Part shown: in pieces, positions 6,518 to 63,054 of the stretch
Position numbering within the stretch: position 1 is the stretch's first letter
Layout: each line of letters opens with the position of its first letter
Source: Actinomycetota bacterium
Lineage (GTDB): Bacteria; Actinomycetota; Actinomycetes; S36-B12
Direction: 5' to 3'
DNA: 64,000 nucleotides
Assembly (NCBI GenBank): GCA_046046455.1
Contig: JBJOJS010000095.1
Coordinates: 1,995 to 65,994, forward strand
Made by a program: the position numbers and the translations under genes
The notes under the pieces: model-generated
The model's input: only the letters and a program-made list of their open reading frames with translations
Database searches by the model: none
What the model was told of the DNA's origin: nothing

Positions 6518-6535
6518 CCCGGCTCCTCGTGGTGC

Positions 6536-6572
6536 GAGTGGGACCGGGGCATGAGATGCCCCGGTCCCACTC
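6536..6572 (-). other. Intercistronic 17-bp perfect stem-loop inside the operon
   Basis: GAGTGGGACCGGGGCAT gag ATGCCCCGGTCCCACTC. It lies in the 62-nt gap between the stop at 6580 and the start at 6517. No T-tract follows, and the next gene's SD comes directly after it. Confidence 0.55.
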
Positions 6573-6579
6573 GGTGGAA

Positions 6580-7377: not shown

Positions 7378-7406
7378 GTCATTTTCTCCTTGGTCTGCGC
7401 GTCGGA

Positions 7407-15102: not shown

Positions 15103-15727
15103 ATGTCGTGTGAGTGGCATCACGACCACGCGAACATGGCGCGCAACCGACCTAGGCCCTGAGCACACTGTCCCCGTGGCCGCGGCTCCCCCTCCGATCG
15201 TCGCACGTGCGCGCGCACTCGCGGCCGCCGTGCTGAGTGATGACCCTGAGGTCTACGAGCACAGTGCACGAACCGCCCATCGGGCTTCCGATATCGCCCG
15301 GCGAGTCCCCGGCAGTCGCGCAGCCGACGTTGTGGCGGCAGCGTGGCTGCACGACATCGGGTACGCCGGTCGACTGTCGCGGACGGGGTTCCACCCGCTC
15401 GACGGAGCCCTCTTCCTCATTGCCGAGGACTGGCCGGAGCGGGTCGTACGGTTGGTGGCCCATCACTCGCTCGCCTCCCTTCAGGCCCCCTTCTACGGGG
15501 TGGGCCACCACCTGGGCGTCATCGAGGTCGTCACGGGCATCGACGCTGATCTCCTCGTCAGTGCCGACCTCCGTGCAGGCCTGGGCGATCCGATCCCTTC
15601 GGTGCAGGAGCGTCTCGATGCCATGCGTCGAGAAGAGGAGCGGATGGGACTGGTACCCGAGGATGTCCGTGAGACGCGCTATGCCGGACTGCATGCCGCG
15701 CACCAGCGAGTCGAGGCACTCCTCTAG
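15035..15727 (+). CDS. HD-domain metal-dependent phosphohydrolase (start uncertain, possibly GTG 15176)
   Basis: AAWLHDIGY (H-D dyad), FHPLDGALFL, LVAHHS. The ORF's first ~47 codons overlap the likely pstC promoter, so the later GTG at 15176 is plausible. Confidence 0.65.
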   Translation: MNDWIHSSRTRALGPDDAQVNEACRVSGITTTRTWRATDLGPEHTVPVAAAPPPIVARARALAAAVLSDDPEVYEHSARTAHRASDIARRVPGSRAADVVAAAWLHDIGYAGRLSRTGFHPLDGALFLIAEDWPERVVRLVAHHSLASLQAPFYGVGHHLGVIEVVTGIDADLLVSADLRAGLGDPIPSVQERLDAMRREEERMGLVPEDVRETRYAGLHAAHQRVEALL

Positions 15728-15800
15728 CAGACAGCGCTCCTTCATCGAGTGTTCATCCTGAGGGCGAGCGCACGCCACCTCGGGCGTGTGACATGCGGCC

Positions 15801-19595: not shown

Positions 19596-20168
19596 TCACT
19601 CGCGGAGCAGTCGGGCGACTGCTCCGGCCAGTGCACCGGGGACAGCGGAGGCATTCGCGGACGGCTGCATGACATGGCTGAGCACCGTGCGGACCAGCAG
19701 ATCGACGATCGCATCGAGCGCAGCGGCGTCCACTCCCGGGTAAGGCATCAGCCGATCGCGCACGCGCTCGCTCGCTACCGCGATCACGACGTCCGCCCGC
19801 GTCGTGAGCAGAGGGACGAGTTCGGTCTCGGCTCCGTGGGTGGCCGTGACGATGGCGCGCAGAAGGGGATTGATCCGCGCGAGATCAAGCACCCGTGCGA
19901 TGGCATCGGCGACCCCGACCTCCAAGTCATCGGGGTGAGCATCGAATCCTGCATCGACCTCATCGAGGAAGGCCCCGAGCTCACGCAGGACCATCGCCTC
20001 GGCGAGGCGATCACGCGAGCCCCACTCGTTGTAGACCGTCTGCCGGCTGACGCCCACCCGCTCGGCCACCGCCGCCATCGTCACACTCGACCAGCCGACC
20101 TCGGTGGTCATCTCTGCGGCAGCAGCGAGGATGCGCTCCCCTGTCGCCATGTCCGCGACCTTCATCAT
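19596..20168 (-). CDS. TetR-family regulator (AlkU-like)
   Basis: 190 aa after trimming. HTH VTMAAVAERVGVSRQTVYNEW. Its ATG overlaps the alkB stop (ATGA). Confidence 0.8.
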   Translation of the reverse strand: MMKVADMATGERILAAAAEMTTEVGWSSVTMAAVAERVGVSRQTVYNEWGSRDRLAEAMVLRELGAFLDEVDAGFDAHPDDLEVGVADAIARVLDLARINPLLRAIVTATHGAETELVPLLTTRADVVIAVASERVRDRLMPYPGVDAAALDAIVDLLVRTVLSHVMQPSANASAVPGALAGAVARLLRE

Positions 20169-21556
20169 CACTCCGCGTGGATCACGAGGAAGTCGACCTT
20201 CTCTCGAACGCCGCAATCGGGGCAGCACCAGCCATCGGGGATGGAGGCGAAGGGTGTGCCCGCGGGGAAGCCCTCGCGCGCATCCCCCCGCCGCTCGTCG
20301 TAGGTGTAGCCGCAGCCGGGACATGTGGCGATGATCGTGCCTCCGGTGAGCACCGCGACAGCACCAGGCAGGGACTCTGCGACCACAACCTCAGCGCGCG
20401 CGGGTGCGGGCGGGAATCGGCGGAGCACGCGCTCGCGCTTCCCAGACTGGATATTGGCGAGCGACATGTCGCCGTCGTAGTGCGAGGCCACGCGCGGATC
20501 CATGACCCGATTCCACAGCGGCGGCACGAGCGCGAGCAGGATCATGCCGGCGTACCCCGTGGGCAGAGCAGGTGCACCCTTCTCATCACGCAGCGCCTGG
20601 TACCGCCGCGTGGGGTGCGCGTGGTGATCGCTATGGCGCTGCAGGTGGTAGAGCAGGACATTGGTCGCCAGGTTGTTGGAGTTCCAACTATGCCGCGGCT
20701 CGACGCGCTCGAAGCGCTCCTTGCCGGGTACCCCGACGATCTGGCGCAGCAGCCCGTAATGCTCGAGGTAGTTGACCGCCTCGAGGAGGGTGAATCCCAC
20801 GACCGCCTGGATGACGAGGTAGGGCAGGATCGCCGGGCCGAGCCAGATGACCATCACGGTCCAGAGGGCCGCCGACATGAGTAGGGCGTTGAGGACATCA
20901 TTGCCGATGCGCCAGGGATGCTGGCCGCGTCGGGAGTAGCGGCGCGACTCCAGGCGCCACGCGTTGGCAAAGGATCCGGACACGGTGCGCGGCCAGAAGC
21001 GGTAAAAGCTCTCCCCCACCCGCGAGCTCGCCGGATCCTCCGGCGTGGCTACGCGCACATGGTGTCCGCGGTTGTGCTCGATGTAGAAGTGGCCGTAGAA
21101 GGACTGTGCGAGCGCGATCTTGGCGAGCCAGCGCTCGACGCTCTCCTTCTTGTGCCCGAGTTCGTGCGCGGTGTTGATGCCCAGGCCACCGATGAAGCCG
21201 ACTGTGACGGCAAGGCCCACGCGATCGAGCGTGCTGAGATCCGCTGTCGCGATGTACCAAATGGCGAAGGCGAATCCGGCGTACTGCAGTGGCAGGAAGA
21301 GATAGGTGAGCCAGCGGTAGTAGCGATCCTCCTCCAGTGCCTTGATCACCGCGTCCGGCGGATTCGACGGATCGAGGCCGGCCGTCCAGTCGATGAGCGG
21401 GACGATGCCGAGGATGACGATGGGGCCGAGCCAGAGCCACACGCCCCAGCCGGTGACAGAGTTGAGGATGACGGCGAGGAAGGGCAGCAGGGGCATCGTG
21501 AGCCCGAAGATCCACAGGTAGCGCTTGCCGTCGCGCCAGGTCGCTGCCGCCTCCAT
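20168..21556 (-). CDS. alkB: Alkane 1-monooxygenase fused to a C-terminal rubredoxin
   Basis: 462 aa. His boxes HELGHKK, EHNRGHH and LQRHSDHH. The C-terminal CPGCGYTY...CCPDCG is a rubredoxin domain. Confidence 0.9.
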   Translation of the reverse strand: MEAAATWRDGKRYLWIFGLTMPLLPFLAVILNSVTGWGVWLWLGPIVILGIVPLIDWTAGLDPSNPPDAVIKALEEDRYYRWLTYLFLPLQYAGFAFAIWYIATADLSTLDRVGLAVTVGFIGGLGINTAHELGHKKESVERWLAKIALAQSFYGHFYIEHNRGHHVRVATPEDPASSRVGESFYRFWPRTVSGSFANAWRLESRRYSRRGQHPWRIGNDVLNALLMSAALWTVMVIWLGPAILPYLVIQAVVGFTLLEAVNYLEHYGLLRQIVGVPGKERFERVEPRHSWNSNNLATNVLLYHLQRHSDHHAHPTRRYQALRDEKGAPALPTGYAGMILLALVPPLWNRVMDPRVASHYDGDMSLANIQSGKRERVLRRFPPAPARAEVVVAESLPGAVAVLTGGTIIATCPGCGYTYDERRGDAREGFPAGTPFASIPDGWCCPDCGVREKVDFLVIHAE

Positions 21557-29894: not shown

Positions 29895-30971
29895 GTGTCC
29901 ACGGAGACGGTCCCGGCGCTCCGGGTGCGTGGGGTGTCGAAGACATTCCCGACACCCGAGGGCGGCGAGGTCAGAGCACTTGACGACGTCAGCCTGGATG
30001 TCGCGGACGGTTCGTTCATGGTGCTCCTCGGACCTTCGGGCTGCGGCAAGACCACGCTGCTGAGGTGCATCGCAGGCCTCGAGGCGCCTGACGCGGGCGA
30101 GATCCTGCTGCGCGACGAGCGCATCGACACAGTCCCGGTCTGGAAGCGCCGGGTCAATACTGTCTTCCAGTCCTACGCACTCTTCCCCCACATGACCGTC
30201 GCGCAGAACATCGCGTTCGGGTTGCAGATGGATCACCTTCCCAAGGACGAGATCGCTCGTAAGGTCGATCAGTCGCTGGAACTCGTGCGCCTCACCGGTC
30301 TCGGGGGTCGACGGCCCCATCAGCTGTCCGGGGGGCAGCAGCAGCGCGTCGCCCTCGCCCGGGCACTGGCCAAGGAGCCTGAGGTGCTGCTCCTCGACGA
30401 GCCTCTGTCCGCCCTGGACCTCAAACTGCGTCGCGGAATGCAGCTGGAGTTGAAGCGGCTCCAGCAGCAGACGCACATCACCTTCATCCTCGTGACGCAC
30501 GACCAGGACGAGGCCATGTCGATGGGCGACCAGGTCGCGGTCTTCAATGAGGGGCGCATCGTGCAGGTGGGCGAGCCCCGTGAGGTCTACCTGCGACCGC
30601 GCACGCGCTTCGTAGCCGACTTCATCGGAGAGGCCAACATCCTCGACCTCGCGGTCGACGGCACCGGTACGTCGATCAGCGGATGGGGGACTGTCCCCGC
30701 GGAGGCCTGGGCCTCGGACTCTTCGGCCATCGCAGGCAGCGGCAGCGTCGCCGCGGTGAGACCCGAAGACGTGCTCTTGTCCGCAGACGAGGGCGGCCGC
30801 TTCTCAATCGTCGATGCGACCTTCATCGGAGGCGACCTCCACGCCGTCGTGCAGGTCGGCGACACCACACTGTCGGCCCGACAGCCCGCAGCTCACGCGA
30901 GCGGCCTGACGACCGGCGGCCGATGCGAGGTCGCCTTCCGCCCCGGCAGCCTGAGGATCGTGGAGGCCTGA
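29895..30971 (+). CDS. potA: Spermidine/putrescine ABC transporter ATP-binding protein
   Basis: 358 aa. [24 protein letters not shown], and a C-terminal TOBE-like domain. Confidence 0.9.
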
Positions 30972-31900
30972 TGGCGAAGGGCAGCACGCGGGCACGCGCG
31001 GGTCAGGGTTCATGGTGGGCAGGACTCCCGGGACTCGCCTACCTCGTCGCCCTCGTCCTCGCTCCGCTCGTCATCATCGTGATCTTCTCCTTCCTCAGCC
31101 GAGCCAAACTCGGCGTAGGAGTGAAATGGGAATTCACTGTCCAGCCCTACATCGAGCTCTTCTACTCCGAATCCCTCTCGGGTGAGCGGAGTTTCGACCC
31201 CACCTACCTGCAGATCTTCTTCAACTCGGTCCTCTACTCGCTCGTGACCGCAATCGTGTGCCTCGTGCTGTCGATTCCGATCGCACTGTGGATCGCCACC
31301 CGGCCGCCGAAGTGGCGGACTCTGCTCGTCTTCCTCGTCACGATCCCGTTCTGGACGAGCCTGCTCATCCGCACGTACGCCTTCGTCATCATCCTCAACG
31401 ACAACGGACCGATCAACGGCGCGCTGACGGGGCTGGGCATCCTCAGCGAGCCTCTGCCCATGCTCTATACGCCCTTCGCCACGATCGTGGGGCTCGTCTA
31501 TTCCTTCCTGCCCTTCATGATCCTGCCGATCTACGCCAGCGCTGAGCGGTTCGACTTCAGGCTCGCGGAGGCCGCCTACGACCTCGGCGCCACCAAGGGC
31601 AGGGTCCTGCGCCGCATCGTGCTGCCGGCTGTGCGACCCGGGATCATCGCGGGTCTCATCCTCGTCTTCATCCCCGCCCTCGGGTCCTTCCTCGCACCCG
31701 AACTCCTCGGCGGCGGCAAGACGTCGATGATCGCCAATGTCATCGCCGCGCAGTTCGGGGCATCCCGCAACTGGCCGTTCGGAGCCGCCCTTTCCGTCAT
31801 GGTGCTCGTCATCGTCATGCTCGCCCTGGTCATCTTCGCCGTGATCGCGCGCCGGGCGAGCCGACGCGGCTCGCAGCAGAGCCTGGAGTCGCTGCTATGA
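30971..31900 (+). CDS. potB: Spermidine/putrescine ABC transporter permease
   Basis: 309 aa from the ATG at 30971, which overlaps the potA stop. EAAYDLGATKGRVLRRIVLP motif. Confidence 0.85.
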   Translation: MAKGSTRARAGQGSWWAGLPGLAYLVALVLAPLVIIVIFSFLSRAKLGVGVKWEFTVQPYIELFYSESLSGERSFDPTYLQIFFNSVLYSLVTAIVCLVLSIPIALWIATRPPKWRTLLVFLVTIPFWTSLLIRTYAFVIILNDNGPINGALTGLGILSEPLPMLYTPFATIVGLVYSFLPFMILPIYASAERFDFRLAEAAYDLGATKGRVLRRIVLPAVRPGIIAGLILVFIPALGSFLAPELLGGGKTSMIANVIAAQFGASRNWPFGAALSVMVLVIVMLALVIFAVIARRASRRGSQQSLESLL

Positions 31901-32697
31901 GGTCTCCCCGCGGCACCGGCACGTCGCTCAAGAACTTCCCCTTCTTCGGCCCCATGGCCGCGATCGTCTTCGGATTCCTCTACATCCCGCTGGTCTTCGT
32001 CGTCGGGTACTCCTTCAACAGCAATCGCGTCGTGACGGTCTGGAAGGGCTTCAGCCTCGAGTGGTACGCCGAGGTGCTGGGCAATGACGACATCCAGCGT
32101 GCGGTCATCAACTCCTTGCGCGTGGCCAGCATCTCGACAGTGCTCTCGGTCATCTTCGCCACGGGCCTCGCCATCGGACTGCTGCGCATGGCGCGCGCGG
32201 GCAAGACGTTCGCCTGGTCCCTCATCATGGCGCCCCTGGTCATCCCCGAGATCGTCTTCGCCATCGGCACCCTGGCGCTCTTCGTCCAGATCCGCTTCCC
32301 CCTGGGGGTCGACGCGATCACCCTGGCACACACGGCGTTCTGCATCCCCTTCGCGCTGCTCCCGATCCGCGCACGTCTGCGGTCGGTGGACCTCGCCGTC
32401 TATGAAGCAGCAGCCGACCTGGGTGCCAACGAGTGGGTGATCTTCCGTCGCATCACACTGCCGCTCCTTGCGCCGGGAATCATCGCCGGAGCGCTGCTGG
32501 CCTTCATCATCAGCCTGGACGACTTCATCGTGTCGTACTTCCTCGCCGGAGCTGGCGGCACCACACTGCCCGTCTACATCTTCGGCATGATCCGCAACGC
32601 CATTACGCCGGGTGTCAATGCACTCTCCACGCTCCTGCTGCTCGCGAGCGTCCTTATCGTCTCTGTTTCCTACATCATCGCAAGAAGGAAGAGGTAA
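31897..32697 (+). CDS. potC: Spermidine/putrescine ABC transporter permease
   Basis: 266 aa. EAAADLGANEWVIFRRITLP. ATGA overlap with potB. Confidence 0.85.
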   Translation: MRSPRGTGTSLKNFPFFGPMAAIVFGFLYIPLVFVVGYSFNSNRVVTVWKGFSLEWYAEVLGNDDIQRAVINSLRVASISTVLSVIFATGLAIGLLRMARAGKTFAWSLIMAPLVIPEIVFAIGTLALFVQIRFPLGVDAITLAHTAFCIPFALLPIRARLRSVDLAVYEAAADLGANEWVIFRRITLPLLAPGIIAGALLAFIISLDDFIVSYFLAGAGGTTLPVYIFGMIRNAITPGVNALSTLLLLASVLIVSVSYIIARRKR

Positions 32698-32699
32698 CT

Positions 32700-33866
32700 A
32701 TGAAGAGGTGGAAGAACCGCCGACCGTCCGGCATCCTGCTGGCGCTCGGCCTGACAGGGATCATGGCCCTGTCCGCATGCGGCGGTGAGACCACCGTCGG
32801 CGGCGGAGGTGAGGCCAGCAGCGCGCCGGCGTCATCGGCCGCCGCATCGGATGCAGCGAGTCCCGAGGCTCCCGCAGGGGACTTCCCGACGCCCAATGGC
32901 GGGGAGGTCAACCTCTACAACTGGACCGACTACATCTCGCCCGAATTGCTGGACCGCTTCGAGTCGGAGACCGGCATCACCGTCAATCTCGACAACTACG
33001 ACTCCAACGAGACGATGCTGAGCAAGCTGCAGGCTGGTGGCGCCAACTACGACGTCATCGTCCCCAGCGACTACATGGTCGCCCAGATGATCGAGCTGGG
33101 GCTCCTCCAGGAGGTCGACCCCGCGTCCTTCCCCAATGGCCAGTACATCAAGCCGGAGTTCATGGACGTCTACTTCGATCCGGGCCGCAAGTACTCGGCT
33201 CCCTACATGTACGGCACGACGGGCATCGCCTACGACCCGACCAAGACCGGAGTCGAGATCACGTCCTGGGCGGACTTCTTCAATGCGGACAGCCCCGCCG
33301 CAGGCAAGATCGGCACGCTCAACGACCAGGTTGAGGTCATCCACGCTGCTCTGCGCGCGGTGGGGTCGCAGCCGTGCTCGACGAACCGCGACGACTACAT
33401 CAAGGTGGAGGAGCTCCTGGCCGGCTGGAAGCCCGGACTCGCGGTCATCAATTCCGACGGCGTCATCGGTCGCATGGCTTCAGGCGAGCAGATCATGCAC
33501 ATGATGTGGAACGGCGCCTTCACCCGGGCACAGGCAGACAACCCGAATCTGCAGTACGTCTACCCCGCTGAGGGCATCACGCTCTGGTCGGACAACTTTG
33601 CGGTCCCCGTGGGCGCGCAGAACGTCGACAACGCCAAGATCTTCATCAACTGGATGATGGATCCGGCCAACATCGGCGAGGCGACCAACTTCGTCGGCTA
33701 CGACAATGGCATCACCGGCTCCTCGGAGTTCATGACCGCCGAGCTCGGCGCCAATCCGGCCGTCGTCATTCCGGAGGAGTTCAAGGCGCTGGCCGCGCCC
33801 GTGCCTGGTTGCCCCGTGGAGGCCATCGACCTCTACGACCAGGTCTGGACCAACTTCAAGAAGTAG
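32700..33866 (+). CDS. potD: Polyamine ABC transporter substrate-binding lipoprotein
   Basis: 388 aa from the ATG at 32700. Lipobox ALSAC. PotD/PotF-like NLYNWTDYI motif. Confidence 0.85.
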   Translation: MKRWKNRRPSGILLALGLTGIMALSACGGETTVGGGGEASSAPASSAAASDAASPEAPAGDFPTPNGGEVNLYNWTDYISPELLDRFESETGITVNLDNYDSNETMLSKLQAGGANYDVIVPSDYMVAQMIELGLLQEVDPASFPNGQYIKPEFMDVYFDPGRKYSAPYMYGTTGIAYDPTKTGVEITSWADFFNADSPAAGKIGTLNDQVEVIHAALRAVGSQPCSTNRDDYIKVEELLAGWKPGLAVINSDGVIGRMASGEQIMHMMWNGAFTRAQADNPNLQYVYPAEGITLWSDNFAVPVGAQNVDNAKIFINWMMDPANIGEATNFVGYDNGITGSSEFMTAELGANPAVVIPEEFKALAAPVPGCPVEAIDLYDQVWTNFKK

Positions 33867-33872
33867 TACGAC

Positions 33873-33907
33873 GTGGGGGGGCCCGGACCTGACCCGGGCC
33901 CCCCCAC
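33873..33907 (+). terminator. Hairpin after potD (terminator or attenuator)
   Basis: 14-bp GC stem GTGGGGGGGCCCGG / CCGGGCCCCCCCAC with only a weak T-tract. Confidence 0.5.
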
Positions 33908-33956
33908 GTTCTGCACCCTGCCCCGATCAGCCCCTTTCCTCGCGGATGGAGCCACC

Positions 33957-35567
33957 GTGACGACCACTCGTATCGAGAACGCCACCGTCTGGACTGGGCA
34001 CCGCCTGCCCGATGGGAGCGTCTACACGACGGACGCCGTACTCATCGCAGACGACCGCGTCATCGCCCTCGGCGCATCCGCGCGACGCTTCACGGCCGAT
34101 CACGTCATCGACGCCGGGGGCGGCTTCATCGCCCCTGCCTTCGGTGACGGCCATGTGCACCCGATCTTCGGCGGCCTGGAGCGCGAGTTCGCGCCCGTCC
34201 GCGATCACGCGACACCGCAGGACATCGCCGCGGCGGTCGGCGCCTGGGCCAAGGCCCACCCTGAGGTCGAATGGGTGCGAGGCGAAGGCTTCGACCACAC
34301 CCTCGCTCCCGAGGGCATCTTCCTCGCTTCCTGGCTCGACGCTCACGTGCCGGACCGACCTGTCGTCCTGCGGGCCACGGACTACCACACCGTCTGGGTC
34401 AACTCCGAGGCGCTGAGGCGCGCGGGGTACGGCCCCGGGGTTGCCCAGCCTCACGATGGCGAGATCGTCCTGGATGACACGGGATCACCCACCGGCACTC
34501 TGCGGGAGTGGGGCGCGTGGCGGCCCGTCTACGACCTGCTCCCCCGCCCAGCGACCGCGATGATGCTCAGCGCCGTCGACTTCGCCACAACCAGTTTTGC
34601 CTCAGCTGGGATCACCTGGGCACAGGACGCGTGGGTCGAACCCGCAGACGTCGAGACATGGATCACCGCCCTCCAGCAGGATCGAGTCCACGCTGACATC
34701 GATCTTGCCCTCTGGGCAGATCCCAACTCATGGCGTGACCAGCTCCCGCACTTCGGGGCAGCTCGCGACCGAGTAGCGCGCGACGGCCAGAGTGTCATCA
34801 CAGCGCACACGGTCAAGTTCTTCGCGGACGGTGTCATCGAGTCGGGCACGAGCGCCATGCTCGAACCCTTCTGCGACTGCCCCCACTCCAAGGGCCTGCC
34901 CAACTGGGACGCTGCGGAGATGGCTGAGGCGGTGGCGGCGATCGATGCCATGGGATTCACCGCGCACATCCATGCGATTGGCGACTACGGAGTGCGCATG
35001 GCTCTCGATGCGATCGAGCACGCAGCGCGCGTCAACCCGCCCCGTGACCGCCGCTGGATCATCGTCCACACGCAGTTGGTCGACCCGGCAGACCTTCCCC
35101 GCTTCGCCGAGTTGGGCGTCATCGCGAACTTCGAGCCCTACTGGTCCAAGTACGACTCCTGGCAATCCGAGCTCACGGCTCCGCGTCTCGGTCCGGAGCG
35201 GACGGACCGCCAGTTCCAGACAGCGACCCTCGCCGCCCTGGGCGCGCGCATCTCCTTCGGCAGCGACTGGCCGGTGACGACCTACTCACCGCTGGAGGGA
35301 ATCCAGGTCGCCGTCACGCGCAAGATGGAGCCCGACGACGATCCGTGGATGCCCGAAGAGTGCATCAGCGTCGATGACGCGCTCCTCGCGTACACCCGCG
35401 GTGTTGCCTTCCAGTCCGGGCGCGATGATGCCGGCATCCTCCGCCCGGGTGCGCGTGCCGACCTCGTCTGGATCGATGCCGATCCCCGATCCGTCGACCC
35501 GATGACCATCGGTGCCATTCCTGTGCGGGGCACCTGGCGTCGAGGCGTGCGCACGTTCGGCACCTGA
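33957..35567 (+). CDS. Amidohydrolase-3 (YtcJ-like) metal-dependent hydrolase
   Basis: 536 aa from the GTG at 33957. GGFIAPAFGDGHVHP metal motif and FGSDWPV near the C-terminus. Confidence 0.8.
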   Translation: MTTTRIENATVWTGHRLPDGSVYTTDAVLIADDRVIALGASARRFTADHVIDAGGGFIAPAFGDGHVHPIFGGLEREFAPVRDHATPQDIAAAVGAWAKAHPEVEWVRGEGFDHTLAPEGIFLASWLDAHVPDRPVVLRATDYHTVWVNSEALRRAGYGPGVAQPHDGEIVLDDTGSPTGTLREWGAWRPVYDLLPRPATAMMLSAVDFATTSFASAGITWAQDAWVEPADVETWITALQQDRVHADIDLALWADPNSWRDQLPHFGAARDRVARDGQSVITAHTVKFFADGVIESGTSAMLEPFCDCPHSKGLPNWDAAEMAEAVAAIDAMGFTAHIHAIGDYGVRMALDAIEHAARVNPPRDRRWIIVHTQLVDPADLPRFAELGVIANFEPYWSKYDSWQSELTAPRLGPERTDRQFQTATLAALGARISFGSDWPVTTYSPLEGIQVAVTRKMEPDDDPWMPEECISVDDALLAYTRGVAFQSGRDDAGILRPGARADLVWIDADPRSVDPMTIGAIPVRGTWRRGVRTFGT

Positions 35568-35568
35568 C

Positions 35569-36303
35569 GTGGCGCTCACTCCGAGCGAGTCGGACCGCCT
35601 CCTGCTCTTCCTCCAGGGAGAGCTCGCACGCAGTCGCCGTGCACGCGGTCTGCGACTCAATGTGCCGGAGGCCACGGCGTACATCGCCGATGCCGTCTGC
35701 GAGATGGCACGCGACGGAGTCGACCTGCCCACGGTGCGCGAGCGGGCACGTCACCTGCTCCACCGCAGCGATGTCATGGACGAAGTGCCCGACCTGCTCT
35801 CCGACGTACGCGTCGAGGCGCGTTTCGATGACGGCACCCGCCTCGTCGTCGTCACGGACCTGTGGGAGACCGCGCACGAAGACGATCCCGGATCTCCCAC
35901 GCCCGAAAGCGATCAGGAGATCGTGGTCCGCAATGAGGCGACCACGGCCATCGCGATCAGCTCGCACATCCACCTCGCCGAAGTGAATCCGCGATTGCGC
36001 CTCGACCGCGAAGCCGCCTTCGGTCGTCGCCTCGCAGTCCCCGCGGGAGCTACGGTGTGGATCCCCGCGGGGGACTCGATCACCCTGCCGACGACTCGGC
36101 TGCGCGGCGATCGCATCGTCGTAGGCAACACCGGCCTCGTCGAGGGATCCGTCGATGACCCTGTGGTGCGCGAGCGCGCACTCGCCGCCCTACGCCGCTG
36201 CGGCTACCTGGACGTCGTCGACGGGGCCGAGGTCAACGACATCGCGCAGGCAGACAGCGCCGTCGCCCAGCTGGTGGCCGAGCGCCGGGATGTCTCCTCA
36301 TGA
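35569..36303 (+). CDS. ureAB: Urease gamma-beta fusion subunit
   Basis: 244 aa from the GTG at 35569, 1 nt after the amidohydrolase stop. The N-terminal half, ALTPSESDRLLLF..GLRLNVPEA, is the gamma subunit. The C-terminal half, IVVRNEATTAIAISSHIHLAEVNP, is the beta subunit. Confidence 0.8.
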   Translation: MALTPSESDRLLLFLQGELARSRRARGLRLNVPEATAYIADAVCEMARDGVDLPTVRERARHLLHRSDVMDEVPDLLSDVRVEARFDDGTRLVVVTDLWETAHEDDPGSPTPESDQEIVVRNEATTAIAISSHIHLAEVNPRLRLDREAAFGRRLAVPAGATVWIPAGDSITLPTTRLRGDRIVVGNTGLVEGSVDDPVVRERALAALRRCGYLDVVDGAEVNDIAQADSAVAQLVAERRDVSS

Positions 36304-37943
36304 GCGGCTACGGCCCCCGACCGGGCGACGTGATCCGCCTCGGGGCGACCGGCCTACGCCTGGGCATCCCCCAGCGCGTCGATGACGCAGGCGATGAATT
36401 CCACGTCGGATTCGCCAAGACCGGACGCGACGGGATCGGGCTCGCACCGGTCACCACTCGGGAGTCCTGCGATCTCGTGATCACCAATGCCATCGTGCTC
36501 GACCCGGTCGACGGGGTGCGGGTCGCGTCGATCGGGATCCGCGAGGGCCGCATCAGCGGGATCGGGCGGGCGGGCAATCCCGCCGTATCGGATGACGTCG
36601 ACATCGTGGTCGGGTCCGGCACCGTCGTCGTCGACGCCGACGGGCTCATCGTCACACCGGGCGGCATCGACACCCACGTGCACGCCATGGCTCCCCGTGT
36701 CTTCGAGTCGGAGATCTCCTCCGGCGTCACGACGGTGCTCGCCCAGGAGGCCGGTCCGGTCTGGGGCGTGGGCATCAACTCCCCCTGGTTCCTCGGCATC
36801 GCTCGCGAGGCACTGGAGGCCGTCCCACTCAATGTCGGGATCCTCGGCCGCGCGTCGTCTGCGCGCCGTGCCGCACTTGACGAGGCGGCAGATGCCCACA
36901 TCTGCGGGTTCAAGGTGCATGAGGACACCGGCGCGACACTGATGACGATCGACACCGCACTCCGGGTGGCTGACGACATCGACGTCCAGGTGGCACTGCA
37001 CACGGACGGACTCAACGAGACGCTCTCGGTCGCTGACACGCTAGCCGTGCTCGACGGACGCGTCGCCCACGCGTTCCACGTCGAGGGAGGCGGCGGCGGC
37101 CACGCCCCCGACGTGCTGACCCTCGCCGGTCGTGAGCACGTCATCGCCTCCTCGACCAATCCGACGCTGCCGTATGGGGTCAATGCGGCAGCAGAGACGC
37201 TGGACATGGTGCTCTTCTGTCACGGGCTCGCCGCGGACCGCGAGAGCGACCTCCAAATCGCACGGGCGCGGATCCGCGAATCCACCATGGCGGCTGAGAA
37301 TCGCCTGCACGACCTGGGGGTCATTCCGATCACGTCATCGGACGCCCTCGGCATGGGCCGTGCAGGAGAGACATGGTGGCGAACTTTCGCGATGGCCGAT
37401 GCGCAGGCGACCCAGTCGGGTGACAGTCTCGAGGCATCGGACGACAACGATCGCATCCTGCGTTACCTCGCCAAGATCACCATCAATCCCGCGCTGGCCC
37501 ACGGTCTCGCGCATGAGGTGGGGCGGCTTGCTGTGGGTCACCGGGCAGACATGGTGCTGTGGGATGCCCGTTCCTTCGCCGCCAAGCCGCTCCTCGTCAT
37601 GGTCGCGGGATATCCCGCCTGGGGAGCGACAGGTGACCCCAACGCGACCATCGACGGTGCGGAGCCGCTGCGCCTCGCTGAACAGTTCGGCGCGCTCGGC
37701 CGAGCGCCGCGACGCCTCGGCTCGATCATCACGAATGCTCGTGCTGCCGCACACGCACCCCTGGATCGCCCAATGATCGTGACACGCGGTTGCCGCACCG
37801 TACGCAGCTCGAACATGGTGCGCCACGGCGTGCTGGGAGAGGTCGTCGTCTCCGCAGACGGGGAGGCCGTGACCTGGCAGGGGAACCCGGTGACGTGCGC
37901 CCCTATCGGCACGGCCTCCCTGTCACGCGTCCACTACTGGTGA
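36300..37943 (+). CDS. ureC: Urease alpha-subunit homologue
   Basis: 547 aa. GGIDTHVH, GFKVHEDTG, ALHTDGLNE, HAFHVEGGGGGHAPD, SSTNPTLPY, FCHGL, SSDALGMGR. All canonical metal and catalytic positions are retained. ATGA overlap with ureAB. Confidence 0.85.
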   Translation: MSGYGPRPGDVIRLGATGLRLGIPQRVDDAGDEFHVGFAKTGRDGIGLAPVTTRESCDLVITNAIVLDPVDGVRVASIGIREGRISGIGRAGNPAVSDDVDIVVGSGTVVVDADGLIVTPGGIDTHVHAMAPRVFESEISSGVTTVLAQEAGPVWGVGINSPWFLGIAREALEAVPLNVGILGRASSARRAALDEAADAHICGFKVHEDTGATLMTIDTALRVADDIDVQVALHTDGLNETLSVADTLAVLDGRVAHAFHVEGGGGGHAPDVLTLAGREHVIASSTNPTLPYGVNAAAETLDMVLFCHGLAADRESDLQIARARIRESTMAAENRLHDLGVIPITSSDALGMGRAGETWWRTFAMADAQATQSGDSLEASDDNDRILRYLAKITINPALAHGLAHEVGRLAVGHRADMVLWDARSFAAKPLLVMVAGYPAWGATGDPNATIDGAEPLRLAEQFGALGRAPRRLGSIITNARAAAHAPLDRPMIVTRGCRTVRSSNMVRHGVLGEVVVSADGEAVTWQGNPVTCAPIGTASLSRVHYW

Positions 37944-53074: not shown

Positions 53075-53090
53075 GCGATCACATGCTCGG

Positions 53091-53172
53091 TGCGGAAGGC
53101 GGGACTCGAACCCGCAAGCCCGGAGGCACTGCGTCCTAAGCGCAGCGTGTCTGCCAATTCCACCACTTCCGC
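53091..53172 (-). tRNA. tRNA-Leu (anticodon TAG)
   Basis: 82 nt, class II. Acceptor GCGGAAG/CTTCCGC, anticodon loop CTTAGGA, long variable arm, T-loop GGTTCGAGTCC. Confidence 0.85.
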
Positions 53173-54752: not shown

Positions 54753-55346
54753 CTAGGGCGCCAGGACGGTGCGAGCGAGTGCCCTCAACGCCTGGCCACG
54801 ATGACTGACGGCGTCCTTCTCGTGGGGACGCAATTCGGCGGTCGTCAGCGCATAGCCCAGCGGGCGGAAGATCGGGTCGTAGCCGAACCCGTGAGCACCG
54901 TGGGGCTCGCGGGCCAGCGTGCCCTCGAGAACTCCCTCGACGACGTGCTCGTCTCCCTCCGCGCCAACCCAGGCGGCCGCGCACACGAACTGCGCTCCAC
55001 GCCGCGCCTCGGGCACCTCGGAGAGCTGGGCGAGCACCAGTGCGAGGTTGGCAGCGTCATCACCGTGGCGACCTGCCCAGCGGGCTGAGAGAACGCCGGG
55101 CATGCCGTGCAGTGCATCGACGCAGAGCCCGGAGTCATCGGCGATCGCGGGCAGGCCGGTCGCCGCTGCAGCTGAGCGCGCCTTGAGCAGTGCGTTGCCC
55201 GCGAAGGTGGACTCGGTCTCCGCGACATCCGGAGCATCGGCCGGCAGCGCGATCAACTCGATGTCGACACCCTCGGCCTGGAGGATGCGGGTGACCTCGG
55301 CGACCTTGTGATCATTGCGGGTCGCAAGGACCGCACGGATCGTCAC
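54753..55346 (-). CDS. rdgB: Non-canonical purine NTP pyrophosphatase (RdgB/HAM1)
   Basis: 197 aa. LATRNDHKV and FGYDPIF motifs. Confidence 0.85.
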
Positions 55347-56065
55347 GATGTGAGCGCTGCGCGCTGCAACGCCGTGAGATCAGCGCAGCCGGCCGCGGCA
55401 AGATCGAGCAATTGGTCGAGAAGGCGGCGATCGAAGGGCTCCCCCTCGGCCGTGCCCTGGACCTCGACGTAGGTGCCGCTCCCGGTCATGACGACGTTCA
55501 TGTCCGTCTCCGCGCGTACGTCGTCGTCGTAGTGCAGATCCAGACGCGGCTCGCCATCGATGATGCCGACACTCACTGCAGCCACCGAGTCGATGAGCGG
55601 ATCGCCCTTGACGTGACCCTGCGTCTTCGCCCATGCGATCGCATCGGCGAGTGCAAGATAGGCACCGGTGATCGCGGCCGTGCGCGTGCCTCCGTCGGCC
55701 TGCAGCACATCGCAGTCGAGGACGATCGTGTTCTCGCCGAGCGCCTCCATGTCGATGACCGCCCGCAGGCTGCGTCCGATGAGGCGCGAGATCTCCTGGG
55801 TGCGCCCACCGAGCCGACCCTTGACCGACTCGCGGTCGCTGCGCGTATTGGTCGAGCGCGGGAGCATGGCGTACTCCGCCGTGACCCAGCCGCGGCCGGA
55901 ATCCTTGAGCCATCGCGGCACACCGGGAGTGAAGCTCGCGGTGCAGAGGACTCGGGTGCGCCCGAAGCTCACCAGGGTCGAGCCCTCCGCCTGCTCGAGC
56001 CACCCGCGCTCGAAGGTGACGGGGCGGAGCTGGGTCGAATCGCGGCCATCGGAACGCGTGGTCAT
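55343..56065 (-). CDS. rph: Ribonuclease PH
   Basis: 240 aa. [28 protein letters not shown]. Confidence 0.95.
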
Positions 56066-56076
56066 GGGGCTTGACC

Positions 56077-56823
56077 CTAGGCCACATCGATGACGAGGCC
56101 GCTGGAGGCCAGCATGATCTCGCCCTCGAATGCCGGGCGGGCCTCGGCCATCGTGGCTTGCGGGTCGTTCCAGGCGACCAGGTGGGTGAGCACGAGGATG
56201 CCGGCACCTGCAGCCTGCGCGTGTTCAGCAGCCTGGCGGGCGGTGAGGTGCACATCGGGCGCCGGGCGCGACTCGAGGCAGCTCGCCTCGATGAGCGCCA
56301 CATCGGCATCGCGCGCGAGATCGATGAGCGCCGCTGATTCACCCGTGTCACCCGAGTAGGCAATCGCATGGCCATCGACTGCGACGCGAAATCCGTACGC
56401 CTCAACGGGATGGTTCACGCGCGCGGCGGTGACCGTGAGGGGTCCTATCGCATGCGCTCCCGCGACGAGATCACGGAAGTCGAACTGCCCGGTCATCCCG
56501 GGTTCCTCCGGCAGGTCGTACGCGCGGGCCATGCGCGCAGCTGTGCCGCGGGGGCCCCACACCGGGATGCGATCGTGCGGCCCCTCCGGGTCATAGCGCC
56601 GCGCGACGTAGAGCCCGCACAGATCCAGGCAGTGGTCCGCATGCAGATGCGACAGCACCACCGCGTCGATGTCCTGCAGGGGGATGTGCCGCTGAAGCAC
56701 ACCGAGGGCGCCGTTGCCCAGGTCGAGCAGGAGCCGGAAGCCGTCATGCTCGATGAGGTAGCAGGACGCAGGCGAGTCGGCACCGGGGAAGGAACCGGCG
56801 CAGCCGATCACCGTGAGGCGCAC
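56077..56823 (-). CDS. MBL-fold metallo-hydrolase (Rv1339-like)
   Basis: 248 aa with HLHADH motif. Conserved position between murI and rph, as in mycobacteria. Confidence 0.8.
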
Positions 56824-56832
56824 AGCGCCAGC

Positions 56833-58855
<2,023 letters not shown>

Positions 58856-58864
58856 GGTCCAAGC

Positions 58865-59284
58865 CTAGGCGACGATCTCGATCGGCTCCTCCGAGACCAC
58901 CCCGTCGACGATCCGGTACGAACGGACCTCCACCGGCCCCTCCTCGGCCCCCGCCTCGCGGGTGGAGACGAGGACGTAGTGGGCACCGGGCTCGGAGGCG
59001 TAGGAGATGTCGGTTCGCGAAGGGTAGGCCTCCGTGGCCGTGTGGGAGTGGTAGATCACGACGGGCTCCTCGCCCAAGTCGTCCATTTCCCGGTAGAGGC
59101 GCAGCAGGTCGGCCGAGTCGAATTCGTAGAAGGTGGCCGATCGCGCGGCATTGACCATGGGGATGAAGCGCTCAGGGTGGTCACTGCCCTCTGGGCCCGC
59201 GATGACGCCGCAGGCCTCATCGGGGTGGTCGGCCCGGGCGTGGGCCACCATCGCGTCGACGAGTTCCGCCCGGATCCTCAGCAC
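58865..59284 (-). CDS. mec: JAMM/MPN+ metalloprotease Mec
   Basis: 139 aa. E..HSHTATEAYPSRTD JAMM motif. Confidence 0.8.
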   Translation of the reverse strand: MLRIRAELVDAMVAHARADHPDEACGVIAGPEGSDHPERFIPMVNAARSATFYEFDSADLLRLYREMDDLGEEPVVIYHSHTATEAYPSRTDISYASEPGAHYVLVSTREAGAEEGPVEVRSYRIVDGVVSEEPIEIVA

Positions 59285-59393
59285 GCGCCAAGCCTAGGGC
59301 GCCTCAATTACGCACCGGCCAGGGTCCATAAATCGTGTCGTAGGTGGTTCAACTTGCGGGCGTCCCCAACCCGGAGGACAGTCCGGTCCGTAC

Positions 59394-59433
59394 GGCGCCT
59401 CTGGGGCGCCCGAGGTCGGCGCCGGAGGGCGCC
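59394..59433 (+). promoter_or_regulatory. Array of four GGCGCC palindromes in the rhodopsin 5' region
   Basis: GGCGCC at 59394, 59405, 59418 and 59428 (spacings 11, 13, 10). The array ends 18 nt before the GTG start. Each copy is self-complementary, so alternative hairpins are possible. Confidence 0.3.
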
Positions 59434-59451
59434 ACGAGAAAGGGGTGCTGC

Positions 59452-60273
59452 GTGGAGGTCGTCGAGACTCTCACCAATGCTCAGTTCCAAACTGTGTACA
59501 ACATCCTGTCCCTGGCGCTGGCCTCCATGGCTGCGACGACAGTGTTCCTGCTGGCTGTGACGCCGCGCGTCCTGCCGCGCTACCGGCTCGCTCTCGTGGT
59601 CTCGGCCATGGTCTGCTTCATCGCCGCCTACCACTACCTGCGCATCTTCGATTCGTTCTCGGATGCCTACATCGCCGTGGGCGCCGGCACGCCAGGCGTG
59701 CAGGAGGTCTTCGAGCTCGTCAAGGGTGACGGCTTCAATGAGGGCTACCGCTACGTCGACTGGCTGCTCACCGTTCCGCTGCTGCTCTTCGAAACGGTTG
59801 CCGTGCTCGCCCTTCCCGCAGCCGTGCGTCGTTCGCTGCTGTGGAAGCTCATCCCCGCTTCGGCTCTCATGATCATCCTGGGCTACCCCGGTGAGATCAC
59901 GGCCGAGCTGGCTCCTAAGGCCATCTGGGGTGCGCTCTCGACGATCCCGTTCATCTACATCCTCTACGTGCTCTTCGTGGAGCTCAGCCGAGCGGCGAAG
60001 AACCAGCCGAACCAGGTGGGCAAGGAGCTCGCGGGCCTGCGCTGGCTGCTCCTCGCCACGTGGGGTGTCTACCCGATCTCCTACGCCTTCCCGATGCTCG
60101 GGCTCGACGGTGCCGACGCCTTCGTCTACCGCCAGGTGGGCTACTCGATCGCGGATGTGCTCGCGAAGTGCCTCTACGGCCTTCTCATCTTCAAGATCGC
60201 GCGCATCAAGTCGATGGACGACAGCCCGGAGTTCGCCGAGGCTGAGATGAAGGAAGCTCCCTCGAGCAAGTAG
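59452..60273 (+). CDS. Microbial (type I) rhodopsin, DTE-motif xanthorhodopsin/proteorhodopsin-like proton pump
   Basis: 273 aa from the GTG at 59452 (AAAGGGG SD 6 nt upstream), 7 TM. Helix C is RYVDWLLTVPLLLFE (D, T, E at the PR D97/T101/E108 positions; Leu at the 105 position). Helix B has AAYHY. Helix G YSIADVLAK carries the Schiff-base Lys. Confidence 0.85.
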   Translation: MEVVETLTNAQFQTVYNILSLALASMAATTVFLLAVTPRVLPRYRLALVVSAMVCFIAAYHYLRIFDSFSDAYIAVGAGTPGVQEVFELVKGDGFNEGYRYVDWLLTVPLLLFETVAVLALPAAVRRSLLWKLIPASALMIILGYPGEITAELAPKAIWGALSTIPFIYILYVLFVELSRAAKNQPNQVGKELAGLRWLLLATWGVYPISYAFPMLGLDGADAFVYRQVGYSIADVLAKCLYGLLIFKIARIKSMDDSPEFAEAEMKEAPSSK

Positions 60274-60287
60274 TTCGACCGGGACAG

Positions 60288-60328
60288 GAGAAGAGGCGGG
60301 GCCCCTCGGGGCTCCGCCTCTTCTCTTT
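60288..60328. terminator. Rho-independent terminator after the rhodopsin gene (shared with the convergent gene)
   Basis: GAGAAGAGGCGGGGCCCC tc GGGGCTCCGCCTCTTCTC followed by TTTGT. Confidence 0.7.
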
Positions 60329-60345
60329 GTCGGGATCTCGGCGCC

Positions 60346-60891
60346 TCAGGGCATCACCGACTGGACAAGGCTTTCCTGCAGGTAGGTCAGCCAGTCGTAG
60401 ACATGGAAGGTCGCCGCCCGCGGATCCTCGTCCGGCAGATCGGCGAGTTCGGCCATTCCGTCTTCGGTGATGCCCAGGCGTGTGCCGAGGGCAAGCCGCA
60501 CGTCATTGAGAGCTCCGAGCCAGGCACTCGCCTCATCGGCGCTGAGCGTGACCTTCTCCCCCGATCGGCGCAGCGTCTCGATCGCCGTGGCGGCATGGGC
60601 CAACTTGGTCTCGCGCAGGGAGCGCTCGGTGAAGCGCCGGAACTGCGCGGACGACTCGACATCGTCTAGGTACGCATCCGGGAAGAGCCGGGCGAGTGCG
60701 GGATCCTCGGGGCGAGCGGCATCCGGGTTGAGGCCGACCAGGCTGACGAGCGGGTCCTCGTCCTCGGCGCCCTCGGGAGTCACGAACTCGACGAGTTGCT
60801 CGAGGAGCGACAGGAGCAGACCCTTCTCCACGACGTCGACCCGGAGGATGACGCGACCCGTGGCGGTGCGCCGGAAGCCGTGCACGCTCAC
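60346..60891 (-). CDS. DUF2017-family protein (ClpS-associated)
   Basis: 181 aa from the GTG at 60891 (GTGA overlap with the clpS stop). Conserved partner of clpS in Actinobacteria, as I recall. Confidence 0.7.
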
Positions 60892-61181
60892 GTGTCGTCC
60901 TTGGTCAACGTCGCCCACAGACCGTAGGAGTGCATCGCCGAGACATCGCGCTCCATCTCCTCGCGCGATCCGGCCGAGACCACCGAGCGCCCGTCCTGAT
61001 GCACCTGCATCATCAACTTCTCCGCCTTCTCGCGCGGATAGTGGAAGTAGGTCATGAAGACGTAGGTGACATAGGACATCAGATTGACGGGGTCGTTCCA
61101 CACGATGGTGATCCACGGGGTATCCGCGGACACGACCTCATCGACATCGGGGCGCTCGAGTTCCGTCGGAGCCGTCGTCAC
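60888..61181 (-). CDS. clpS: ATP-dependent Clp protease adaptor ClpS
   Basis: 97 aa. [43 protein letters not shown]. Confidence 0.9.
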
Positions 61182-61203
61182 GGCTTCAGGGTACGGCGAA
61201 CCG

Positions 61204-63054
61204 TCAGCCGACGGTGATCACGAGGCGAGCCGAGGCCCCCTGGGCGACGGTCGCGGACTCGGGGACGAGGAGGCGGTAGGAGACCTCGCCCTCGACCGTC
61301 GGCTTGACCGTCGCGGTTACCTTGCCACCGGCGATGGTCATCGCGGTGGCCACGTCGCGCCATGCGCCCGAGGAGTTGCGTCGCTGGACGGTCACGGAAA
61401 TGCCGTCGAGGTTCGGCGAGACGACGCCCGTGATGGTGACGGGCGTGCCTACCGCGACCGTAGTCGCGCTTGCCTGAGCGGTCACGGCATAGCGCACAGT
61501 CGTTGGCGCCGGATCGCTCTCGCCGGCTGCTCGCGACCACGAGCCCTCGACCGACACGGTCCAGGACCCACTGGACTCGACTGGGACCTTAAAGACACCC
61601 TTGCCCTCGCCATCGAGGGTGATCGAGTCCACCTTCGCGCGCGTCGCCGATCCACCCTTGGGCTCGAAGTAGAGGGTTGCCTCGGCGCCCTTGGCCGCGC
61701 CCGCACGCGAGTCGGTGCTCACGCGCACGGAGACGGTGCGCCCATGCGTCGTCACCTTCGGCGCCTTGACGGTCACTGTCGTCGCGGCAGGAGCGATCTC
61801 GCGGCCGTAGTCAGCGAGACGCGAGTAGAAGTCGCTGGTGACCGTGCCGAAGTCCCACACGGCAATGCCACCGATCTTGAGATCCGGCACGATCTTGGCT
61901 CGACTCAGAGCGGAACGAGTGTCCGCGAACCACACGCGGCGCTTGACGTCGCAGGTGCGCTCCTTCTTGTCCACCTTGCCGGCGGTGGGCAGCCAGTAGT
62001 CGAAGGTCCACTCCCCCGACTCCGCGTCCCACGTGGGCTCGATCTTCTCGCGGGCAGCGATCTCACGTGCGGACATGGGCGTGACGCTGGTGCGCGAGGG
62101 AGTGGTCGTCGGCTTCCACCCCGCCGGACACTGGTCGTCGACAGCCCAGCCGGTGCCCACCTGCACGGGCCAGTTGCGGCCGTACTGCGGAGCCCCGATC
62201 CACACGCGGTCGGCATATTCCTCGCCCACCTGCTGGACGGCGCTCTTGGCGACCAGGGTCGCCCAGTCGTTAGGGCCGATGGGTCCCGGCACGTCCCAGC
62301 TGTAGTCGTAAGCCATGATGTTGAGGCGGTCCACGAAGGGCGCGATCTCGTTCCATGCGTACACCCAATAGCCCGTGCCGGGATTGGGTGCGCCCGAACC
62401 CGAGAACGGCGGGACACCACCCGGCACGGTCGCCCACAGCGTGAGCCCCTTCGCGTGAAGTTGCTCCGAGAGCTCCTTGACCATCGCCACCCAGCGCGGC
62501 TTGGTGGCCTCCCACGAGTCACGGCCGTCAGCGAAGGCGAAGGCCTCCCAGTCGAGATCGATGCCGTCGACGCCTGCCTTGACGGCGTAGTCGGTGATCT
62601 GCTGGGCGTAGGCCTTGCGGTTCTTGCCCGACGCCAGGTAGGCGCTCAGCTTCCCCGCGTTGGCCGAACCGAGATCGGTGATCGACGCGTTGACCTTGAT
62701 GCCAGCGGCCTGGAGCACCTTGCGCTGCCGATCGAACTTCGGCGTCGTCCAGGGGGTCGCGCTCTTGCACAGGGGATCACCCCATGCGCCGTCCTTGTCG
62801 TAGTCGCCGTTGTCGTAGAGGCACAAGGGGTTCTTGTCGCCCTGGAAGGACCACCAGAACATCGCCACCTCGCCGACGACGCCGTCGGCGGTCGAGACCA
62901 TCTGCGAGATCGAGGTATCCGACGCCCACCAACCGAACCAGCCCGACACGACAGGTCGCGGCGCCTCGGCCGCGGATGCCGCCGGGGCAGCCACGAGCGT
63001 GGCGGCCGCGACCGCGGCTGAGGCGATAAGGGCGGTGGTCCCGCGCAGGCGCAT
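61204..63054 (-). CDS. Secreted glycoside hydrolase family 18 protein with C-terminal Ig-like domains
   Basis: 616 aa with signal ...[11 protein letters not shown]18 catalytic motif [10 protein letters not shown]. About 200 aa of beta-rich repeats at the C-terminus. Confidence 0.8.

Follow-up and report, generated by a model that had tools for sequence, protein, structure and literature searches.

The gene actR of an Actinomycetota bacterium lies on a 64,000-nucleotide stretch of contig JBJOJS010000095.1 (the whole of which is here called the window), where it occupies positions 59452-60273 of the plus strand, starts with GTG, encodes a 273-residue protein and matches the Pfam family Bac_rhodopsin (PF01036, E 6e-39). 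Its neighbours all lie on the minus strand. On the left, mec (58865-59284; a JAMM/Prok-JAB CysO hydrolase, PF14464, E 9e-32) is divergent from actR and is followed downstream by cysO (58583-58855; ThiS, PF02597, E 2e-17) and cysM (57624-58571; PALP, PF00291, E 6e-73), and then, likewise assigned with Pfam, by murI (56833-57717), a gene for an MBL-fold protein (56077-56823), rph, encoding RNase PH (55343-56065), and rdgB (Ham1; 54753-55346). On the right, DUF2017 (60346-60921; PF09438, E 6e-58) is convergent with actR and, together with clpS (60888-61181; PF02617, E 1e-22), forms the right border of what we refer to as the slot, mec being its left border. The start of mec is separated from that of actR by 167 nt, and the 72-nt spacer between actR and DUF2017 contains a terminator hairpin. 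A sequence-only reading of this DNA had already recognized the open reading frame (ORF) as a rhodopsin gene and had described a minus-strand series interrupted by one plus-strand gene with a 167-nt upstream region; the rhodopsin assignment is borne out by PF01036 and by matches to structures of the xanthorhodopsin group, and all coordinates were confirmed. Its description of actR as a monocistronic unit on the opposite strand, interrupting a block that other Actinobacteria have in one piece, also stands.

The longest version of the actR ORF in the ORF list begins at 59344, with the stop side ending at 60273. The GTG at 59452 is nevertheless the start supported by sequence comparison: it is conserved in relatives, many deposited proteins have 273 residues, and a ribosome-binding site, GAGAAAGGGG (59436-59445, plus strand, read from the sequence), ends 6 nt ahead of it. 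The GAGAAAGGGG motif is found at the equal position in the related loci L010 and L011.

The actR protein and its relatives

The match to PF01036 scores 134.3 bits against a cut-off of 24.6 and places residues 19-250 on profile positions 7-221 of 224. A homology search returned thousands of relatives, of which the best 120 listed are 97-72% identical to the window rhodopsin. Some of the homologues are named 'bacteriorhodopsin-like [Candidatus Nanopelagicales bacterium]' or 'xanthorhodopsin [Actinomycetota bacterium]', and the members of the window rhodopsin's own cluster at ≥90% identity carry the first of these names. With near-identical proteins already deposited and named, actR is an ordinary, already known kind of gene. 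The top matches among solved structures are 9hfk (E 1.9e-81), Gloeobacter rhodopsin 6nwd (5.6e-76) and Salinibacter xanthorhodopsin 3ddl (8.6e-62), and psXR, Kin4B8 and a 5azd chain (called 'Bacteriorhodopsin' in its file, and presumably the thermophilic rhodopsin TR) are also near. The E-values for this xanthorhodopsin/Gloeobacter group range from 1e-61 to 1e-81, as compared to 1e-19 to 1e-24 for proteorhodopsins and ~1e-15 for bacteriorhodopsin. Judged by these comparisons, the protein is a typical actinorhodopsin (ActR) of the xanthorhodopsin-like group.

Residue roles were assigned by alignment to Gloeobacter rhodopsin numbering (given in parentheses below), and 15 related sequences were compared. 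K239 in 'ADVLAK' (K257) corresponds to the Schiff base lysine of the DxxxK motif, and D235 (D253) to the helix-7 aspartate. The helix-3 counter-ion is D103 (D121), with H61 (H87) as its histidine partner in helix 2, while T107 (T125) is the motif threonine and E114 (E132) the proton donor. L111 (L129), which we take to be equivalent to L105 of proteorhodopsin, is the green-tuning position; G160 (G178) is the helix-5 glycine at the carotenoid fenestration; and P135 in 'LIPASA' (V153) is the ActR-specific helix-4 proline. These key residues are kept in all 15 related sequences, and the helix-4 proline is present in every Nanopelagicales sequence compared and in 9hfk. This proline has been reported to separate ActR from xantho-opsins (Dwulit-Smith et al., 10.1101/367102).

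From the residues aligned in this way, we infer that the window ActR is a green-absorbing outward proton pump. G160 would permit, without proving, the binding of a carotenoid antenna. The length of the B-C loop and the charge of the C-terminal tail could be cited in favour of a sensory rhodopsin or of a pump for another ion, but we regard such a function as highly improbable: the D-T-E residues, D235, K239 and the histidine that pairs with the counter-ion all agree with those of proven proton pumps, no transducer gene adjoins actR, and an acI actinorhodopsin has been shown to acidify the medium in the light (10.1101/367102).

The ActR of acI bacteria (for example, that of SCGC AAA027-L06; Dwulit-Smith et al. 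2018, 10.1101/367102) resembles the window protein in its family, D-T-E residues, Schiff base lysine, green leucine, helix-4 proline and antenna glycine, and its gene is likewise a lone one away from crt/blh. With Gloeobacter rhodopsin 6nwd and xanthorhodopsin 3ddl, all seven helices can be aligned, and the proton-pump residues and the antenna-site glycine are identical. Gloeobacter rhodopsin, however, has valine at the helix-4 position where the window protein has proline, and no ketocarotenoid genes lie near actR. The best structure match, 9hfk, was deposited as 'Bacteriorhodopsin', and a literature search on it found no publication; it aligns over residues 6-269 and has the ActR proline and all key residues in common with the window protein, whereas its B-C loop is shorter and its F-G loop longer. 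In the rhodopsin tree, it branches near the low-GC group described below with a bootstrap of 48, that is, without support.

Occupancy of the slot in related genomes

The slot was sampled by look-ups from rhodopsin homologues and by a Mec scan of species-representative genomes (80 loci), mapped with tblastn, and its layout was defined as mec, then actR on the opposite strand, then DUF2017-clpS. Mec itself is 72-93% identical across 80 actinobacterial genomes. Eleven of the 12 distinct rhodopsin-bearing lineages sampled have actR in this common slot, over a range of 46-70% G+C (GC) and of 97-56% rhodopsin identity. Among the homologue look-ups, the slot is filled in L001 and L002 (85% identity), L003-L005 (81%), L090 and L091 (76%) and L092 (73%), all on contigs of 60-66% GC, and the Mec scan revealed filled slots in L010 (94%), L011 (93%) and L014 (82%). 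Taken together, these high-GC loci span 60-70% GC and have rhodopsins that are 94-73% identical to that of the window. The slot is also filled in five loci of 47-49% GC (L018, L026, L034, L049 and L058), the rhodopsins of which are 56-59% identical, and the layout is repeated in L093 (49% GC, 57% identity). L094 (46% GC, 65% identity) lacks mec-cysO-cysM; its actR, which is immediately adjacent to murI, has nevertheless remained convergent with DUF2017-clpS. The actR-DUF2017 spacer measures 33-116 nt in all slot loci, and the upstream spacer 135-204 nt, except in L014, where it is 311 nt.

Several of the low-GC loci were deposited as Candidatus Nanopelagicales, and the low-GC slot loci fall within the range of 40-51% GC of the cultivated acI genera (PMC12817590). 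The low-GC Nanopelagicales metagenome-assembled genomes (MAGs) sampled are similar to the window in having actR in the matching slot next to DUF2017-clpS, but their rhodopsins are only 56-65% identical to that of the window, whose host has 67% GC as opposed to the 40-51% of the streamlined acI bacteria (PMC12817590). Moreover, cysO-cysM has the ancestral orientation in the window, whereas it is inverted or lost in the low-GC loci, the inversion of cysM-cysO relative to mec being seen in L018, L026, L034, L049, L058 and L093. L010 (CAZLZC010000002.1) is the closest species-representative genome, with 94% identity for the rhodopsin and 93% for Mec. It was deposited as 'uncultured Actinomyces sp.', a label that looks wrong, as its rhodopsin clusters with proteins deposited as Candidatus Nanopelagicales.

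A search of the literature on actinorhodopsin synteny and genomic context found no publications on the DUF2017-mec slot. The acI synteny figure in PMC3526179 was considered and set aside, since it shows an rRNA-bearing fosmid and not actR.

The clpS...mec-cysO-cysM...MBL/rph/rdgB series occurs without a rhodopsin gene in Nocardia, Gordonia, Mycolicibacterium, Amycolatopsis and Streptomyces loci, in agreement with the earlier claim that the series is syntenic across the Actinobacteria and has no rhodopsin gene in M. tuberculosis. Where the slot is empty, a distance of -28 to +61 nt separates the DUF2017 stop and the start of a co-directional mec, and this tight packing in one direction makes clpS-DUF2017-mec-cysO-cysM look like one operon. 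Genomes with an empty slot include Nocardioidaceae, Aeromicrobium, Streptacidiphilus, acAMD-2 and MAGs named Candidatus Nanopelagicales (L015, L016 and L040); the isolate names of L015 and L040 suggest bioreactor or activated-sludge sources. In Streptomyces and Nocardia, 1-2.7 kb of other genes are found within the slot. In the rhodopsin-less L020 (4474-5991), the slot holds a 505-residue ORF with an HNH-endonuclease-like end (CRFPGC...HCDVDH...CRRHHNLKTH).

Inheritance of actR

Two neighbour-joining trees, one for the rhodopsin and one for a concatenation of seven flank proteins, were built on tblastn segments; with 14 shared taxa, they have 7 of 11 bipartitions in common, while none of 2000 label permutations exceeded 4. 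Pairwise distances of rhodopsin and flanks are correlated with r = 0.81. The groups formed by the window, L010 and L011 and by L001, L003 and L014 are strongly supported in both trees, and both their union and the low-GC clade receive 100% in each. L016 and L020, which lack a rhodopsin gene, fall together with the rhodopsin-bearing L090-L092 in the flank tree (bootstrap 93), a placement that points to secondary loss of the rhodopsin. All close relatives sampled have the gene in the slot, and no conflict with the flank tree was seen, deep nodes aside.

The composition of actR does not set it apart from its surroundings. Its G+C at third codon positions (GC3) is 0.87, compared to 0.85 ± 0.04 for 56 window genes, and its synonymous codons fit the usage of the window better than those of most genes (z = +0.87, rank 50 of 56). 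The total GC of 0.635 is somewhat low (z = -1.65), which is attributed to the amino-acid composition of a membrane protein. Pfam scans of the window revealed no integrase or transposase domains, and of the two tRNA genes in the window, the one nearest to actR is at 53089-53172. A search for target-site duplications around actR returned only imperfect repeat pairs of 12-33 nt, at chance level and typical of G+C-rich DNA. One 13-nt pair (59393/60339) was rejected as a target-site duplication, having no counterpart in the L010 spacers when these were inspected by eye. The sequence-only reading, which had seen neither transposase, integrase or direct repeats nor a compositional break, was thus correct in these respects. 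From them it had concluded that actR is an old or ameliorated single-gene acquisition, of which the antiquity of the insertion holds up and the implied peculiarity to this genome does not: the slot is common to 11 of 12 lineages, so that the gene is present at this position largely throughout the family, and the rhodopsin and flank phylogenies are congruent at 7 of 11 bipartitions.

One locus shows that the gene can be found elsewhere. L006 (P0083; MUNK22-1_SAMEA7428527 scaffold_98, 5649-6950; 54% GC) has a 74%-identical rhodopsin outside the slot, adjoining SSB and an ABC-F gene and 280 nt from tRNA-Arg(TCT). This rhodopsin nests with that of L091 (bootstrap 91), its terminator hairpin has nearly the sequence of that of L091, and a TTGCGG-N17-AAACCT element is kept upstream of it, so the whole cassette of promoter, gene and terminator appears to have moved or been transferred. 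The rhodopsin can thus be mobile, but such a move does not account for the situation in the window.

We consider it probable that the window holds a vertically inherited actinorhodopsin at the normal actR locus of the order, going back to one old insertion and followed by few losses or relocations. A single gain is favoured by the identical orientation everywhere, by the short actR-DUF2017 spacer with its hairpin, and by the persistence of this junction in L094; on the sequences compared, one ancient gain with losses appears the more economical reading, which is not to say that it is proven. Several points weigh against it. The deep backbone of the flank tree is weakly supported (bootstraps 28-59), and the rhodopsin-less L013, L015, L028, L035, L040 and L076 fall between the two rhodopsin-bearing groups, as a result of which one gain with several losses is not formally separable from two gains. 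The ratio of rhodopsin to flank distances is 1.2-1.8 between the low-GC and high-GC groups, compared to 0.4-1.2 within the high-GC group. The trees are neighbour-joining trees of tblastn segments rather than maximum-likelihood trees of marker genes, and the flank tree derives from genes adjoining the slot itself. The order-level names are those given by depositors, and the low-GC loci are not proven members of the cultivated acI genera. Finally, the slot accepts other cargo, namely the HNH-type ORF of L020 and the 1-2.7 kb of genes in Streptomyces and Nocardia.

Some of these points would equally fit a DUF2017-mec junction that is a hot spot for insertion, entered independently in the high-GC and low-GC clades, or a spread of the gene by homologous recombination through the mec/clpS flanks. 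Such a history would account for the rhodopsin-less lineages between the two rhodopsin-bearing groups of a poorly resolved flank tree, for the other cargo of the slot, and for a distance ratio that is higher between the groups than within, and the L006 cassette indicates that the unit can move intact. We nevertheless find it unlikely, as the orientation is the same everywhere, the spacer on the DUF2017 side stays within 33-116 nt and has the hairpin in all loci but one, and the upstream spacer stays within 135-204 nt with the sole exception of L014 (311 nt). Both groups also have the ActR-specific proline of helix 4 and, with the 9hfk protein as their neighbour, make up a single family distinct from Gloeobacter rhodopsin; the actR of L094 stays beside DUF2017 despite the loss of mec-cysO-cysM; and the isolate names of several rhodopsin-less MAGs, from which alone their habitats are taken, suggest sludge, bioreactors and mine drainage, where loss would be expected.

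Quite improbable, in our view, is a horizontal acquisition of the single rhodopsin gene by this genome or genus in particular, with subsequent amelioration. It is true that, by comparison with Streptomyces, Nocardia, Gordonia, Mycolicibacterium and several Nanopelagicales MAGs, the gene is an addition to an otherwise continuous block, and that rhodopsin genes are known to move, L006 carrying the cassette elsewhere and beside a tRNA-Arg. However, slot, orientation and terminator layout are common to at least 11 lineages, spanning 46-70% GC and reaching down to 56% identity, and the rhodopsin co-diverges with its flanks. Integrase, transposase, a close tRNA and flanking repeats are all lacking in the window, and the codon usage is not deviant.

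For vertical inheritance from one old insertion, we propose the following model. The clpS, DUF2017, mec, cysO and cysM genes would ancestrally have been co-directional and close-packed, and actR may have been inserted on the opposite strand as a self-contained unit consisting of its own promoter, a 5' untranslated region (UTR) of ~60 nt, the actR reading frame and a hairpin that terminates transcription in both directions. This insertion would have occurred once, in the ancestor of much of the order, after which actR would have been inherited vertically along with its flanks, with a few lineages losing it and at least one relocating it. In the present genome, it would allow a high-GC member of Candidatus Nanopelagicales to add light energy to a heterotrophic lifestyle, using retinal made by crt/blh products encoded elsewhere in the genome or taken from the environment.

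The importance of the finding lies mainly in correct annotation, the host, at 67% GC, being related to the streamlined freshwater Actinobacteria of acI and having retained the light-driven proton pump of the order. The position of actR beside DUF2017-clpS may be used as a synteny marker for recognizing Nanopelagicales contigs and for scoring loss of the rhodopsin, for example in MAGs with sludge or bioreactor names. The conserved slot is a small addition to what is known of acI genome organization, and not a new type of system.

Control elements, chromophore supply and other features of the window

A symmetric, G+C-rich hairpin (60288-60328) lies between the convergent actR and DUF2017 and, including its T-rich tail, extends over 60288-60333; it was matched by a terminator scan. 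The hairpin has 18-bp arms (60288-60305 and 60308-60325) that are 94% complementary, and it folds at -48.5 kcal/mol (z = -4.4), with none of 200 shuffles folding as well, which agrees with its earlier designation as a strong terminator. It probably serves as an intrinsic terminator in both directions. Of the 11 related slot loci amenable to examination, 10 have a counterpart of this hairpin, with AAAAACCCCC...GGGGGTTTTT being found in the low-GC loci. The sole examined slot locus without a strong hairpin between actR and DUF2017 is L003 (6832-6864; 33 nt, -5 kcal/mol), the others having values of -29 to -71 kcal/mol. The matches of an Rfam scan of 58500-61300 (E <= 1) were confined to the terminator hairpin and were chance ones to miRNAs and snoRNAs, with no riboswitch or leader among them.

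The putative actR promoter (59354-59382, plus strand) consists of a -35-like TTGCGG (59354-59359), a 17-nt spacer and a -10-like GACAGT (59377-59382), and would give a 5' UTR of ~60-65 nt. The invariant columns in an alignment of the mec-actR spacers of seven high-GC lineages include TTGC (59354-59357) and the G, A and T of the GACAGT hexamer, and the layout TTGC(A/G)N-N17-NANNNT can be read by eye in L006 and in the low-GC loci, where it takes the form TTGCAA-N17-CAGGCT. Since a consensus sigma-70 scan of 59150-60450 gave no match, it is on conservation that the proposal of this promoter is founded.

Splitting of the clpS-mec block by the actR unit explains both why actR has its own terminator and why mec would need a promoter within the 167-nt spacer. 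Several blocks of the divergent mec/actR control region (59285-59353) are conserved in the seven-lineage alignment, namely CCTAGG beside the mec start, AATTNCGCAC, AAATCG and GTTCAAC, which are candidates for a mec promoter or a regulator site. When the shared spacer was inspected visually for a SigH-type motif or a promoter of mec, no convincing -10 element came to light. The sequence GTTCAA|CTTGCGG in this spacer is readable as a pair of -35-like hexamers placed back to back. The composite motif AAATCG-N13-TCAACTTGC has a single occurrence in the window, in the mec/actR spacer itself, and at least one match was found in 48 of 100 shuffles, so that this count is within chance; as the search of the window returned only the motif's own site, no regulon can be inferred from it.

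The products of mec-cysO-cysM form a route to cysteine that uses a sulfur carrier and that, in mycobacteria, is linked to oxidative stress. The control region between mec and actR (GTTCAA|CTTGCGG, AATTNCGCAC and AAATCG) might conceivably couple transcription of the rhodopsin gene to that of mec-cysO-cysM, and the cassette of promoter, gene and terminator might, as a separate matter, be able to relocate intact to a tRNA site in another genome (L006), but we consider this reading unlikely. If the coupling were real, light harvesting would be under one regulator with thiol-based and photo-oxidative defence.

To cover the chromophore genes, ORFs were called by GC3, and ~66 window ORFs, including those in first-pass gaps, were scanned against Pfam. 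None of them encodes phytoene synthase or desaturase, lycopene cyclase or Blh/BCD, and the previous observation that the 64 kb contain no retinal or carotenoid genes is thereby upheld. We conclude that the retinal would have to derive from crt/blh elsewhere in the genome or from the environment. Lone actR genes without nearby chromophore genes are the known norm in the acI and Nanopelagicales literature: an actR distant from crt/blh has already been described for acI (10.1101/367102), and every Nanopelagicales isolate carries one actR, whereas blh is often absent (PMC12817590, PMC5301498). The marine proteorhodopsin photosystem islands, in which the rhodopsin gene is accompanied by crtEIBY-blh, encode a retinal-based light-driven proton pump, as the window is also predicted to do, but the window has no linked chromophore operon and no signs of an island, and its rhodopsin gene is vertically inherited at a fixed locus.

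The only FA_desaturase match, at 20168-21556, was considered as a carotenoid ketolase and rejected, the domain being fused to rubredoxin and the gene lying beside TetR, as in an AlkB-like layout. The region concerned (19596-21556, minus strand) encodes a 462-residue FA-desaturase-family protein with a C-terminal rubredoxin, in the layout of an AlkB-like alkane hydroxylase, and an adjoining TetR regulator.

Between murI and cysM, several relatives have a plus-strand ORF of 138-143 residues without a Pfam match (L001, 1001-1432; L002, 3653-4084; L090, 2392-2811; L091, 2560-2976). The window differs from these loci in that its murI and cysM abut or overlap, with no ORF evident between them. At 29895-37943, genes for an ABC importer (an ATPase, two permeases and a solute-binding protein) are followed by Amidohydro_3, a fused urease gamma/beta and urease alpha, directly downstream of which no urease accessory genes were seen. 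Four sizeable high-GC3 ORFs without a Pfam match are present on the minus strand at 5630-6517, 6580-7488, 8420-10972 (850 residues) and 15152-15778, interspersed with genes for a sortase, two PBP_like_2 proteins and ABC permeases.

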